The translations under genes and the position numbers were made by a program. Shown piece after piece: positions 27,489-39,117 of a stretch of 42,127 bases of DNA. This DNA comes from Candidatus Curtissbacteria bacterium RIFCSPHIGHO2_01_FULL_41_11 (GTDB lineage: Bacteria > Patescibacteriota > Microgenomatia > Curtissbacterales > GWA2-41-24). The notes beneath the pieces were generated by a model, which saw only the letters and a list, made by a program, of their open reading frames with translations, was not told where the DNA came from and searched no databases. The stretch lies in NCBI GenBank assembly GCA_001776335.1, contig MFAZ01000012.1:1-42127 (forward strand), written 5' to 3'. Each line of letters opens with the position of its first letter. Position 1 is the stretch's first letter.

Positions 27489-27561
27489 CCAGTTTCAATA
27501 TATCACAAATACCATCGAGCCTTGACCATATGATTGATTGTCTGCTACCATTCCGTAAGGT

Positions 27562-27595
27562 CCTGAGCGAATCGAGTAATCGATGAGTCGAAGGG
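27562..27595 (+). repeat. CCTGAGCGA...GTCGAAGGG GC-rich element in the rplY leader
   Basis: CCTGAGCGA at 27562-27570 and GTCGAAGGG at 27587-27595, separated by 16 nt containing TCGAGTAATCGA. Confidence 0.65.
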
Positions 27596-27608
27596 CCCCA
27601 GTACAAGT

Positions 27609-28364
27609 ATGGAACAAATCCCGCTCGTTGCCCAAAAACGCACAGTTTTAGGCAGAAAAGTAAAAACCATAAGAAAAGAAGGGTTCATCCCCGCTCATGT
27701 TTATGGGAAGAAAATAGAAACAATTCACGTACAGGTCAAAGGCGCTGATTTTAGAAAGGTTTTTGAACAAGCAGGAGAAACAGGAATAGTAGACTTACAA
27801 ATAGATGGAGCCAAGCACCCTGCTCTTATTAGAAACGTTCAGGTCCACCCCGTTACAGACGAACCTCTTCACATCGATTTTTATCAAGTAAACCTCGCAG
27901 AAAAGGTTAAAGTTAACGTTCCTGTAGAAGTTACTGGCGAAGCCCCTGCAGAGCAGAAAAAAATCGGGCTGTTGCTTACACCTACCTCAGAAATTGAAGT
28001 GGAAGCACTGCCTGCTGATATCCCGGAAATTATTGAGGTGGATGTATCAAAGCTGGAAAATATCGGCGACGAAATCAGAGTCAAAGATTTGCCAATCGAT
28101 AAATCCAAAATCGAAGTTCTGGCAGACGAAGATCTCGTTGTTGCCGCAATTGGCGAACTTGTAACCAAAGAACAGGCAGAGCTGGAAGCCCAAATTGAAG
28201 CCGAAGCAGCTGAAGCAGCCGCGACAGAAGCCGTCCCAGCTGAAGGCGGAGCCGCCGAAGGCGAGCCTAGCCCGGAGGAGCGGGAGGGTGAAGCACCCAA
28301 AGAGGGCGAGGGCGAAGCACCTAAAGAAGGCGAAGCGAAAACCGAGGAGAAAAAGGAAGAATAG
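27609..28364 (+). CDS. rplY: 50S ribosomal protein L25 / general stress protein Ctc, with an acidic repeat tail
   Basis: AQKRTVLGRKVKTIRKEGFIPAHVYGK and a two-domain Ctc-type length. The tail contains a 24-nt tandem repeat (28284-28307 and 28308-28331) encoding EGEAPKEG twice. Confidence 0.9.
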   Translation: MEQIPLVAQKRTVLGRKVKTIRKEGFIPAHVYGKKIETIHVQVKGADFRKVFEQAGETGIVDLQIDGAKHPALIRNVQVHPVTDEPLHIDFYQVNLAEKVKVNVPVEVTGEAPAEQKKIGLLLTPTSEIEVEALPADIPEIIEVDVSKLENIGDEIRVKDLPIDKSKIEVLADEDLVVAAIGELVTKEQAELEAQIEAEAAEAAATEAVPAEGGAAEGEPSPEEREGEAPKEGEGEAPKEGEAKTEEKKEE

Positions 28365-36088: not shown

Positions 36089-36979
36089 ATGAGACTGAAA
36101 CAGGCAATCCTAGCCACACTCGCATACCACGACATTTTTGATTACCCCTTAACAGCACAGCAGATACATAGGTATTTAATAATCAAAGCGAGTAAAACTG
36201 CACTCGAAAAAGAATTAGCCGTATTATTTCCTGCAAAGGAGTTCTACTCACTCACCAACCGTCAAAAAATAGCACTGATAAGAAAAAAACGCCAGAAGTA
36301 CTCAAATAAAAAGCTCAAACGAGCTTACTTCTACGCAAGCTTTCTTAAGCAGATTCCAAGTATAAAAATGGTTGCAATCTCAGGCGCACTTGCCATGGAA
36401 AACAGTCACAAAAGTGACGACATAGACCTTGTCATTGTCACCGCCAAAAACACCCTTTGGACTACAAGATTTCTTGCAAATATTCTCCTGTTTCCGTTCA
36501 AACGTAAGCCGCATTCTAGTCGACTAATCACTAGCCACTATGCACTAGCCACTAACAATAAAGCCTGCCTTAATATTTTCTTGGATGAATCCAACCTGAA
36601 AATTTCTCCGAGAAATATTTACACAGCCCACGAACTCTGCCAGCTAAAATCATTAATAGATATAAATAAAACCTATAGTAGATTAATCAAAGCTAACCTG
36701 TGGATTTACAAGTATTTACCAAATTGGGAACCTGAAGCTGAAAGACAATCGAGGAACGTCGATCGCAGACTGCGTCTAAAAGCTTTAGTCTTTAGTCGTT
36801 CAGCATTAGTCCTTGAAAACTTTCTCAAAAAATTTCAACTATTTTATATGAGAAAAAGAATTACCTCAGAGCAGATAGGGGAGCATCAACTATTTTTCCA
36901 CCCGTCAAATACTCAAGAGTGGGTTTTAAAAGAATATCAAAAGAGGTTAAAAAAGCTAAAATTGGCAAAGTCTTTTTAA
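36089..36979 (+). CDS. Putative nucleotidyltransferase-fold protein (Pol-beta-like)
   Basis: ISGALAMENSHKSDDIDLVIV resembles the GS-x-DxD nucleotidyltransferase motif. It contains two heptamer-tract insertions. Confidence 0.4.
   Translation: MRLKQAILATLAYHDIFDYPLTAQQIHRYLIIKASKTALEKELAVLFPAKEFYSLTNRQKIALIRKKRQKYSNKKLKRAYFYASFLKQIPSIKMVAISGALAMENSHKSDDIDLVIVTAKNTLWTTRFLANILLFPFKRKPHSSRLITSHYALATNNKACLNIFLDESNLKISPRNIYTAHELCQLKSLIDINKTYSRLIKANLWIYKYLPNWEPEAERQSRNVDRRLRLKALVFSRSALVLENFLKKFQLFYMRKRITSEQIGEHQLFFHPSNTQEWVLKEYQKRLKKLKLAKSF
36516..36557. repeat. Heptamer tract (CTAG/GCCAC family) inside the NTase-like gene
   Basis: CTAGTCG ACTAATC ACTAGCC ACTATGC ACTAGCC ACTAACA. It encodes SSRLITSHYALATN. 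This is the same family as 12302-12343, in the opposite orientation. Confidence 0.85.
36783..36817. repeat. Second heptamer tract inside the NTase-like gene
   Basis: CTTTAGT CTTTAGT CGTTCAG CATTAGT CCTTGAA. It encodes ALVFSRSALVLE. Confidence 0.75.
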
Positions 36980-37254
36980 TCGGTCTTAACGCTTTTATTG
37001 CCTGTCGCCAAAAGTGCCAAAATAGTCGCAATACCCGCTCCTATTACCACTTTATCAGTACCCCTGTCATCATCAGTTTCTCGCTCGTCAATCTTGCTAA
37101 TATCCAGAACATCCGGATCGTCAGCAGGGTTTGTATCTGTAGTTGCCATCTCATAGACTCCCACCGAACAAAATCCGAGTGCGGCAACGGTGAAGCCTCC
37201 ATAGACGATACCGCGGCAAGCTTTGTCCAGTCTGCTTAGTTTCCTTTCTCCCAT
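36976..37254 (-). CDS. Small two-TM membrane protein with an acidic loop; function unknown
   Basis: Two hydrophobic segments: IVYGGFTVAALGFCSVGVY and VVIGAGIATILALLATG. I prefer the ATG at 37254. The ORF-track start at 37290 is a TTG abutting the pyrG -35 box. Confidence 0.4.
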   Translation of the reverse strand: MGERKLSRLDKACRGIVYGGFTVAALGFCSVGVYEMATTDTNPADDPDVLDISKIDERETDDDRGTDKVVIGAGIATILALLATGNKSVKTD

Positions 37255-37283
37255 AGGCCCAATATTATACCGAAAATTCAAAC

Positions 37284-37313
37284 TTGACAAAAATTTACCA
37301 GTTTTGAGAGAAT
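37284..37313 (+). promoter_or_regulatory. pyrG promoter: TTGACA-N18-TGaGAGAAT (extended -10)
   Basis: TTGACA at 37284-37289, TG at 37305-37306, GAGAAT at 37308-37313. The predicted start falls on GGGCC at 37320-37324. Confidence 0.55.
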
Positions 37314-37330
37314 ATTGGTGGGCCGAAGGT

Positions 37331-37385
37331 CCTGAGTCCTGAGCGATGGTGAGAGAAATCGAACCAGAGTCGAAGGATCGAAGGG
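37331..37385 (+). repeat. Expanded CCTGAGCGA...GTCGAAGGG element in the pyrG leader
   Basis: CCTGAGT (37331-37337), CCTGAGCGA (37338-37346), GTCGAAGG (37369-37376), ATCGAAGGG (37377-37385). Confidence 0.65.
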
Positions 37386-37394
37386 CACCACGCC

Positions 37395-37421
37395 AAGAGC
37401 TCCCCGCAAGGGAGTTTTTTT
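37395..37421 (+). terminator. Intrinsic terminator/attenuator hairpin plus a T7 run in the pyrG leader
   Basis: Stem CTCCC (37400-37404) pairs with GGGAG (37410-37414), with loop CGCAA. It is extendable by AAGAG pairing with the T-run. Seven T at 37415-37421, which is 70 nt before the pyrG ATG. Confidence 0.55.
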
Positions 37422-37491
37422 AGGCCCGCAGTCCGAGTCATCGAGGACGAGGACCGCATGCCAAACGCCCTGATTTGAAGGGGCACTGTAT

Positions 37492-39117
37492 ATGGTTCGA
37501 ACAAAATACATCTTTGTCTCAGGCGGGGTTATTTCCGGAATCGGCAAAGGCATCGCCGTCTCTTCAATATCTCTTCTTCTAAAATCCCGCGGTTTTTCGG
37601 TAACTGCCATGAAAGCCGATCCGTATCTCAACGTAGACGCCGGCACCTTAAACCCAATTGAGCACGGAGAAGTCTTTGTTCTGGATGATGGCATGGAGTG
37701 CGACCAGGATCTGGGCAACTACGAGCGCTTTTTGGATCAATCTTTAAACGCCACCAACTACATGACCACGGGCCAAGTCTTCAAATCTATAATCGATCGC
37801 GAGAGGGCTTTAGGCTACGAAGGGAAAACAGTCGAGTTTTTCCAGCATCCGCCCGAAGAAATCATTTCAAGAATCAAAAAATGTGTCAGGCGAAATCGCG
37901 CCGAGATCATTGTTTTTGAAGTAGGAGGAACTGTAGGGGAGTACCAAAACCTGCTTTTTCTGGAGGCTAATCGTCTTCTGAAGCTTACTCACCCCAGAGA
38001 TGTTCTTCACGTCCATGTCACTTATTTGCCGATCCCCTCATCAATAGGGGAGATGAAGTCAAAACCCGCCCAAATGTCCATCAATCAACTGTTCCAGTCG
38101 GGGATTCAGCCCGATTTTGTACTTGCCCGTTCGCAAATGGCCGTCGATGAAAAGAGAAAGCAGAAAATAGCAATCGCTGTCGGCATGAACCCCGACGATA
38201 TCATCTCCGCCCCGGACGTCGAAAGCATATATCAGGTACCACTTAATTTCGAAAACCAGGAACTTTCCAACAAAATCTTGAAAAAGCTCTTCATCAAACC
38301 ACGAAGGCGTGATCTTTCGGATTGGAAAGTTATGGTCAACAACACTTTAACTGCCAAAAAGACGGCCAAAATTGCCATGGTCGGTAAATATTTTGCAACC
38401 GGAGATTTCACTCTTTCCGATGCTTACCTTTCTGTCATAGAGTCCATAAAACACGCATCAGCTGCAAATGATATCAAACCCAAAATTACCTGGGTCGACA
38501 GTGGCCAAATCGAAAAAGAAGGCACCAAAATACTCGCCGGCTACGACGGAATTATCGTTCCGGGAGGCTACGGTGAAAGGGGAGTCGAGCAAATCATAGA
38601 AAGCATCAAATTCACAAGAGAAGCCGGAATTCCGTATTTCGGGCTCTGCTTTGGAATGCAGCTTGCGGCAGTCGAATTTGCCAGAAACGTTTGTGGATAC
38701 AAGGATGCCCACACAACTGAGATCAACCCCAAAACCAAAAATCCGGTAATCGATGTCATGGAGTCTCAAAAAGAAAACGTCGCGGGTAAAGTCTTAGGTG
38801 GCACTCAGCGCTTGGGATCTTGGGACTTCAAAGCCACAAAAGGCACAAAGTTTGCAAAAGCCTACGGTTCACTATCAGGTTCAGAGCGTCACCGTCATCG
38901 CTACGAATTCAATAATAAATATAGGAAATTGTTTGAAAAGAAAGGCTTTTTAGTCGCTGCCAGCAATAAAGAAGAAACTCTGGTCGAAGCCTTGGAACTC
39001 AAAGACCACCCCTTTTTCATCGGTGTCCAGTTCCACCCCGAACTCAAATCCCGCCCGCTTCACCCACACCCCCTCTACATGGCTTTCATGGAAGCGGTTA
39101 GCAAATCGATAAAGTAA
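37492..39117 (+). CDS. pyrG: CTP synthase
   Basis: KYIFVSGGVISGIGKGIA (synthetase domain), GLCFGMQLAAVEFARN and ERHRHRYEFN (glutamine amidotransferase domain). 541 aa. Confidence 0.95.
   Translation: MVRTKYIFVSGGVISGIGKGIAVSSISLLLKSRGFSVTAMKADPYLNVDAGTLNPIEHGEVFVLDDGMECDQDLGNYERFLDQSLNATNYMTTGQVFKSIIDRERALGYEGKTVEFFQHPPEEIISRIKKCVRRNRAEIIVFEVGGTVGEYQNLLFLEANRLLKLTHPRDVLHVHVTYLPIPSSIGEMKSKPAQMSINQLFQSGIQPDFVLARSQMAVDEKRKQKIAIAVGMNPDDIISAPDVESIYQVPLNFENQELSNKILKKLFIKPRRRDLSDWKVMVNNTLTAKKTAKIAMVGKYFATGDFTLSDAYLSVIESIKHASAANDIKPKITWVDSGQIEKEGTKILAGYDGIIVPGGYGERGVEQIIESIKFTREAGIPYFGLCFGMQLAAVEFARNVCGYKDAHTTEINPKTKNPVIDVMESQKENVAGKVLGGTQRLGSWDFKATKGTKFAKAYGSLSGSERHRHRYEFNNKYRKLFEKKGFLVAASNKEETLVEALELKDHPFFIGVQFHPELKSRPLHPHPLYMAFMEAVSKSIK

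Follow-up and report, generated by a model that had tools for sequence, protein, structure and literature searches.

CTP-sensitive reiterative transcription at pyrG, the gene for CTP synthase, is a textbook example of gene control that needs no regulator. When CTP is plentiful in Bacillus subtilis, the transcript begins GGGCUC... and is terminated at an attenuator (Meng, Turnbough & Switzer 2004, as summarized in PMC7039003); when CTP is low, according to the same summary, GGG is extended by up to 10 extra G residues and the leader forms an antiterminator. In that account the system needs only the GGGC start and a pyrimidine-rich segment of the attenuator (PMC7039003). With a purine at template position −1 the poly-G of pyrG stays short, about 8 nt, and productive, while a pyrimidine there gives 20-mers or longer (PMC7039003). 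The pyrG motif of the Bacilli, OCRC-39-1, is described in the supplement of PMC11109978 as having GGGC at the start, with GCUCCC and GGGAGC as the strands of the terminator stem, and the 231 representatives given there are all Bacilli. For Streptococcus agalactiae pyrG, dRNA-seq has yielded evidence of pseudo-templated G addition (PMC4448216). Documented cases of reiterative transcription at pyrG are, as far as we have found, confined to Bacilli, and a full-text literature search gave no paper joining reiterative transcription with Patescibacteria.

Here we analysed the pyrG leader of Candidatus Curtissbacteria bacterium RIFCSPHIGHO2_01_FULL_41_11 within a 42,127-nt stretch of DNA (contig MFAZ01000012.1), which as a whole we call the window. 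The window carries the elements of the Bacilli motif: GGGC at 37320–37323, GCUCCC at 37399–37404, and GGGAG followed by U at 37410–37415. We consider it likely that this leader is a CTP-sensing reiterative-transcription attenuator, as in B. subtilis. The original prediction, which read the leader as an attenuator of this kind, gains support at the level of sequence from the conserved GGGC, the pyrimidine-arm terminator and the presence in the window of the published defining elements.

Promoter, predicted start and hairpins of the pyrG leader

On re-reading the sequence, the positions originally given for the promoter, GGGCC, hairpin, T7 and ATG all proved exact (Table 1). A promoter scan scored the pyrG site at 10/12 matches plus the extended TG. 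The −10 element and GGGCC are separated by the 6 nt ATTGGT, and the first G of GGGC (37320), the seventh nucleotide past the −10, is the predicted +1, a placement drawn solely from promoter geometry. The C at +4 is proposed, by analogy, as the CTP-sensing position. Position −1 is T, giving a purine on the template strand. Among the 13 promoter-like sites of the window, the pyrG promoter alone has a G-run at its predicted start; this, and the recurrence of the whole arrangement in 24 other species (below), speaks against a chance pattern.

Table 1. Features of the pyrG locus in the window, numbered from its first nucleotide.
Feature	Positions	Strand	Details
−35 hexamer TTGACA	37284–37289	+	Promoter scan; invariant in 25/25 Curtissbacteria-type loci
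Extended −10 TGaGAGAAT	37305–37313	+	Hexamer GAGAAT at 37308–37313; spacer from the −35 of 18 nt
Predicted initially transcribed GGGC	37320–37323	+	GGGCC at 37320–37324; promoter geometry, 25/25 loci
Hairpin 1	37329–37386	+	Folding; long stem with nested tandem G·A internal loops (GUCCUGAG...UCGAAGGAU)
Leader terminator hairpin	37399–37414	+	5′ arm GCUCCC(C) at 37399–37405; loop CGCAA; 3′ arm GGGAG at 37410–37414
U-tract (T7) of intrinsic terminator	37415–37421	+	70 nt before the pyrG ATG at 37492
Second inserted hairpin module	37423–37462	+	Folding, z = −3.1; 40 nt
SD hairpin GCCCU/GGGGC	37467–37484	+	Folding; 3′ arm holds SD-like GGGG at 37480–37483
pyrG (CTP synthase), the putatively regulated gene	37492–39117	+	CTP_synth_N, E = 1.6e-96; GATase, E = 6.4e-34

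The encoded PyrG is 75–86% identical to that of loci L001–L026 and L028, from Curtissbacteria, and 55–60% identical to that of L027 and L029–L080, from Daviesbacteria and other Patescibacteria, a pattern that places the window among the Curtissbacteria. A minus-strand open reading frame (ORF; 36976–37290) sits between pyrG and the upstream plus-strand gene, and it had no Pfam match. A divergent promoter-like site on the minus strand (37254–37290; TTGTCA, 17 nt, TAATAT) overlaps the pyrG −35. Seven nucleotides past TAATAT is an ATG (37254, minus strand) within the same ORF, which from 37254 to 36976 may be a leaderless small gene.

The core of the terminator 5′ arm is CTCCC (37400–37404), and the pyrimidine-rich arm as a whole (37399–37405) is the proposed poly-G target. 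Folded alone, the terminator hairpin has a free energy of −15.6 kcal/mol (z = −3.7). Its stem runs on into the T-run (AAGAGCUCCC/GGGAGUUUUU) to reach 10 pairs by folding, with a G·U as the outermost pair where GCUCCC meets GGGAG+U. A terminator scan of the window did not list this hairpin, probably because the stem enters the T-run and leaves too few unpaired T for the rule of the scan. On the minus strand the hairpin has no T-run; this, together with the intervening minus-strand ORF, places the terminator inside the pyrG leader and not at the end of the neighbouring gene. Elsewhere in the 42-kb window canonical hairpin-plus-T-run terminators are few, with 8 candidates, all weak, and by a crude count motifs like a Shine–Dalgarno (SD) sequence are infrequent upstream of long ORFs; the strong leader terminator stands out against this background.

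Three further hairpins surround the terminator. At the base of hairpin 1, GGC (37321–37323) is predicted to pair with GCC (37392–37394); the hairpin itself is a variable insert, probably either dispensable or an insulator. The second module (pattern GGC..GC.GUCC-GA-GUC..loop..GAC-GA-GGAC.GC..GCC) begins with GGCCC (37423–37427), which is able to pair with the 5′ GGGCC. Besides the window it was found only in L013 and L028, and partly in L012, and by comparison of the leaders it lies outside the conserved core. In the third, the SD-like GGGG (37480–37483) ends 8 nt before the AUG and the opposing arm, GCCCU, is also C/U-rich; GGGG may serve as the SD sequence, and poly-G may open the hairpin that holds it.

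Conservation of the start and of the terminator arm

We placed the start codon of pyrG in each related locus and searched upstream for a promoter and then for GGGC. The Curtissbacteria-type set comprised 25 loci with upstream DNA, including the window; L012, L016 and L025 were excluded because they lie at a contig edge. All 25 have TTGACA, a spacer of 17–18 nt, TGnGAnAAT, 6 nt and GGGC, a signature that can be written TTGACA-N14-15-TGAGANAAT-N6-GGGC. The −10 region has the consensus TTTGAGAnAAT in 23 of the loci and TTTGCGAAAAT in the other two. Viewed column by column from −50 to +16, conservation is confined to three blocks, the −35, TTTGAGAnAAT and (G)CGGGC, with variation in the spacer, in the flanks and past +4. 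On the non-template strand position −1 is C in 23 and T in 2 loci, leaving a purine on the template throughout, and the genes upstream of the leader differ among the 25 species. The original prediction proposed comparing pyrG leaders of related genomes for a GGGC at +1, and the comparison found it conserved upstream of pyrG in every locus, exactly 6 nt past the −10. Metagenome contigs were also searched, with a pattern that set 17–18 nt between TTGACA and TGAGA, where the true spacing is 14–15; it gave 7 chance matches, none near pyrG.

A hairpin followed by a T-run of 4–7 ends every Curtissbacteria-type leader analysed. Across 27 loci the first six stem positions of its 5′ arm are pyrimidines at 151 of 162 sites (93%), a strand asymmetry that is somewhat inflated, as transition-only covariation (C–G to U–A) is the easiest path for any hairpin. 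The arms form 13 distinct pairs in these loci (UCCCCU/AGGGGA, UCCUCC/GGAGGA, UCUCCC/GGGGGA, CCCUCC/GGAGGG, GCUCCC/GGGAGC and others), so the stem co-varies while its 5′ side stays C/U. As controls we took 98 hairpin+T5 sites elsewhere in the window and the loci, found by the same search rule, and their 5′ arms were 51% pyrimidine. A run of at least five pyrimidines is present in the 5′ arm of 24/27 leaders versus 7/98 controls (Fisher p = 2e-16, which overstates independence, the loci being homologous, and is an upper bound on the evidence). A CUCCC-type pyrimidine arm in the pyrG terminator, the second feature proposed for comparison, is thus kept in 24 of 27 leaders. The full GCUCCC/GGGAGC pair of the Bacilli motif recurs in L006, and GCUCC with GGAGC in L004, L011, L012 and L024.

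Most Curtissbacteria-type terminators (for example, L003, L007 and L020–L023) consist of a 6-bp pyrimidine/purine stem, a 3×3 internal loop, a short GC stem and a small loop, the internal loop being GUA, GAA or AUA opposite GAA. The window terminator is a simple form compared with this more elaborate inner architecture of its relatives.

Between GGGC and the terminator the Curtissbacteria-type leaders differ widely: at one extreme is a 6-bp hairpin (GCACCC/GGGUGC), at the other are stems of 60 nt or two additional hairpins, and this region had no conserved sequence. The window, L004, L006, L011 and L024 form a subgroup with a common hairpin base (GUCCUGAG...UCGAAGGAC), tandem G·A loops and a variable top; their terminators have AGCUCCCC as the 5′ arm and GGGAG(C) or GGAGC as the 3′ arm. 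Hairpins of the other relatives at this place are short and unrelated to hairpin 1 of the window. This divergence agrees with the need in B. subtilis for GGGC and the pyrimidine segment alone. The base of hairpin 1 takes up G3 and C4 in many relatives, so that an unextended transcript exposes two G, which would be expected to lower basal read-through in those relatives.

Proposed mechanism, folding and alternatives

The scheme that follows is inferred as to the start site, slippage, dependence on CTP and direction of regulation. The sigma-70-type promoter (TTGACA, 18 nt, TGaGAGAAT) would start the transcript at GGGC (37320). With CTP plentiful, C would be added at +4, the RNA would keep GGGC as its 5′ end, partly tucked into the base of hairpin 1, and the GCUCCC/GGGAG hairpin with U7 (37399–37421) would terminate transcription ahead of pyrG. 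With CTP scarce, the polymerase would stall before +4 and GGG would slip on the template CCC, allowing extra G to be added; G-slippage by the polymerase of this lineage is presumed here by analogy. The single-stranded 5′ poly-G would then pair with the C/U-only arm CUCCCC on its emergence, blocking the terminator and giving read-through into pyrG.

Such pairing is thermodynamically feasible. In the nascent transcript folded up to just before the terminator 3′ arm, CUCCCC has a probability of 0.01 of pairing with the 5′ G-run when no G is added; one extra G raises this to 0.44, two raise it to 0.82, and three or more to about 1.0. When the transcript ends at the hairpin, the probability of the terminator stem falls from 0.88 to 0.04–0.23 with 3–6 extra G and to 0.00 with 8–10, and is 0.67 with extra A. 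Averaged over 23 leaders, it falls from 0.84 to 0.31 with G10, versus 0.82 with A10; L001, L005, L017, L028 and the multi-hairpin leaders L009, L010 and L021 showed little or no effect of poly-G at equilibrium. With the U-tract included at equilibrium the terminator is still favoured with 10 extra G (0.80), a fold that we judged the wrong model, since the U-tract is still engaged in the RNA:DNA hybrid when termination is decided. The preference for the terminator when the U-tract is free, together with the weak effect in some relatives, makes the antitermination argument a kinetic one, as in B. subtilis: the folding model predicts that three or more extra 5′ G capture CUCCCC before the terminator can form.

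The best-surviving alternative, which we nevertheless consider unlikely, keeps a real terminator and gives it another controller, either an RNA-binding protein (PyrR-like, or L7Ae-type on the tandem G·A hairpins) or a small-molecule aptamer, with GGG reflecting promoter strength or sensing of the initiating GTP. Large hairpins with tandem G·A loops, a common protein-binding motif, are present in the window leader, a similar hairpin lies in the leader of ribosomal protein bL25, and G-initiating promoters are known GTP sensors in Firmicutes. Against this, the 25 species share no conserved hairpin in the interval from GGGC to the terminator, where many have a 6-bp hairpin alone, and a middle region that varies so much speaks against both an aptamer and a conserved protein site. 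In Daviesbacteria-type leaders (described below) the tandem-GA element is seen in both orientations, as an inserted repeat would be and a ligand site would not. GTP sensing leaves the invariant C at +4 and the pyrimidine-only arm unexplained. Rfam searches (the window at gathering thresholds, the leader at 37150–37600 with E ≤ 10, and 15 related loci with E ≤ 1) gave two sub-threshold chance matches alone, and no match to a PyrR-binding site or any riboswitch at E ≤ 10 in 37150–37600; for a pyrG-leader family the lack of a match says little, since the element is short and mostly variable and the library may lack such a model.

The tandem G·A hairpins belong to a family (CCUGAG...CGAAGG) that recurs in intergenic leaders, in the window at 37329–37386, 37430–37455 and 27560–27596. 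In the window its pattern matches 4 times, versus 0.09 expected, with two of the matches nested inside the leader of pyrG, and its occurrence in both orientations in Daviesbacteria-type pyrG leaders was noted above; the element seems to be a small inserted palindromic repeat and not a dedicated RNA motif. Ribosomal protein bL25 binds the loop E region of 5S rRNA. One copy (27560–27608) lies directly upstream of the gene for bL25/Ctc (ORF 27609–28364; Pfam L25p, E = 4.6e-24), and by analogy the hairpin there could be an autoregulatory mimic.

Improbable to a greater degree is that the hairpin sequesters the ribosome-binding site or stabilizes the mRNA as a constitutive partial terminator, its C/U arm merely complementing a GGAGG SD sequence. 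In 16 of 23 relatives (L002, L003, L009, L017, L019–L023 and others) the T-run does end 0–5 nt from the start codon, with GGAGGA or GGGGGA of the 3′ arm sitting like an SD sequence, and in the window a separate hairpin, GCCCU/GGGGC, covers the SD-like GGGG. In seven leaders (the window, L007, L008, L013, L018, L024 and L028), however, the terminator is 18–81 nt from the start codon, and all seven keep the pyrimidine asymmetry; an SD role of the 3′ arm alone therefore cannot explain the pyrimidine arm, and we rejected it as the sole cause. SD-like motifs are, moreover, infrequent before other ORFs of these genomes (15/56, 7/83 and 4/24 in a crude count, which is weak since the start codons are uncurated), and the fixed GGGC at +1 in 25/25 loci is left unexplained. 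Sequestration fits the attenuator as an added translational layer and is not a true alternative to it: where a relative has its terminator right at the start codon, one and the same poly-G pairing would both prevent termination and free the ribosome site.

That the 100-nt segment from GGGC to U7 is an independent small RNA gene, upstream of pyrG by chance, is very improbable. In favour of this reading are a promoter and a terminator belonging to the segment and a fold better than that of shuffled sequences (z = −3.8), but the segment lies always directly upstream of pyrG in 25 species with differing upstream neighbours, its terminator abuts the pyrG start codon in most of them with no second promoter after it, and its internal sequence is without conservation.

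Variant leaders and relation to known systems

A different arrangement was found in 28 loci within L027 and L029–L077, the Daviesbacteria-type set, about 45–180 nt upstream of pyrG. These have TTGnnA, 17 nt, TATTAT, 5 nt and GGGCCT(C/T)AAAA (in RNA, GGGCCU(C/U)AAAA), with the start pattern conserved as TATTAT-5nt-GGGCCUCAAAA. A C-box (CCCC or longer) lies 11–114 nt from +1 in 26 of the 28, and no hairpin-plus-T-run terminator was found in any of the 28 leaders. Position −1 is A, so the template has a pyrimidine there, for which a longer poly-G is predicted (per PMC7039003). When six G are added, most of the short leaders are predicted to fold with the G-run paired to the C-box, and in folding the extra G are needed for a stable 5′-terminal G:C helix.

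The Daviesbacteria-type arrangement thus resembles a pyrG poly-G switch that does without a terminator, and its predicted G:C helix might control mRNA stability or translation and not termination. If so, it would be terminator-less reiterative-transcription control, a form not described before, and it may point to a second readout of a poly-G 5′ end. In the window, poly-G could likewise act both at the terminator (GCUCCCC) and at the SD-masking hairpin (37467–37484). More tentatively, and with a good deal of doubt, Microgenomates may possess in the GGGC(C) start an ancient, modular poly-G sensor to which different outputs can be coupled.

Two other roles for the Daviesbacteria-type elements were considered. 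Masking of the start codon by the C-box, through GGNGG codons of the conserved SGG motif, was rejected, since the codons are mostly GGU GGU and gave no consistent pairing; a DNA palindrome at the start (TTGAGG-G-CCTCAA), considered as a repressor operator, is only partly conserved.

Further variants were seen among the related loci. In L034, L037, L042 and L044 the last 20 nt before pyrG read tagGATAAT-gctagc-GTG, with the GTG start codon occupying the site of GGGC in Curtissbacteria, which suggests a leaderless pyrG mRNA. In L046 and L049 the leaders begin near GGGGGUCGG and end in (U)CCCCC directly before the ATG, another G-run/C-run pairing, but with U instead of C after the G-run.

The extra-G mechanism probably also works in this distant, minimal-genome lineage. 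A three-part device conserved in 25 species would carry it to very remote bacteria whose genomes are tiny and encode few regulatory proteins, and for which regulation without protein would be especially useful. For uncultivated bacteria the device yields a prediction of regulation at the level of RNA.

Among known systems, PyrR-mediated attenuation of pyr operons likewise places a terminator in the leader of a pyrimidine gene; it needs a conserved PyrR-binding hairpin, whereas the leader here is unconserved between GGGC and the terminator. Other slippage-controlled starts share the sensing of a nucleotide pool at a homopolymeric start without a regulatory protein, but they use U or A tracts and give non-productive transcripts, whereas the G-tract products here are predicted to be productive and antiterminating. 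For S. agalactiae pyrG the mechanism was drawn from sequence together with 5′ reads; here it is drawn from sequence alone.

The closest likeness is to the pyrG leader of B. subtilis and the Bacilli motif, with which the window shares the gene, the GGGC start, the GCUCCC and GGGAG(C) terminator strands, the purine at template −1, an unconserved intervening leader and the predicted logic of poly-G pairing with a pyrimidine strand. It differs from the Bacilli motif in its host, a member of the Curtissbacteria (Microgenomates, candidate phyla radiation), in an upstream neighbour that is not rpoE, and in a non-consensus GAnAAT −10 with an extended TG. In most Curtissbacteria relatives the terminator, unlike that of the Bacilli motif, abuts the start codon, so that its 3′ arm could double as the SD sequence, and the window itself has, in addition, two inserted modules of tandem-GA hairpins and an SD hairpin apart from the terminator.
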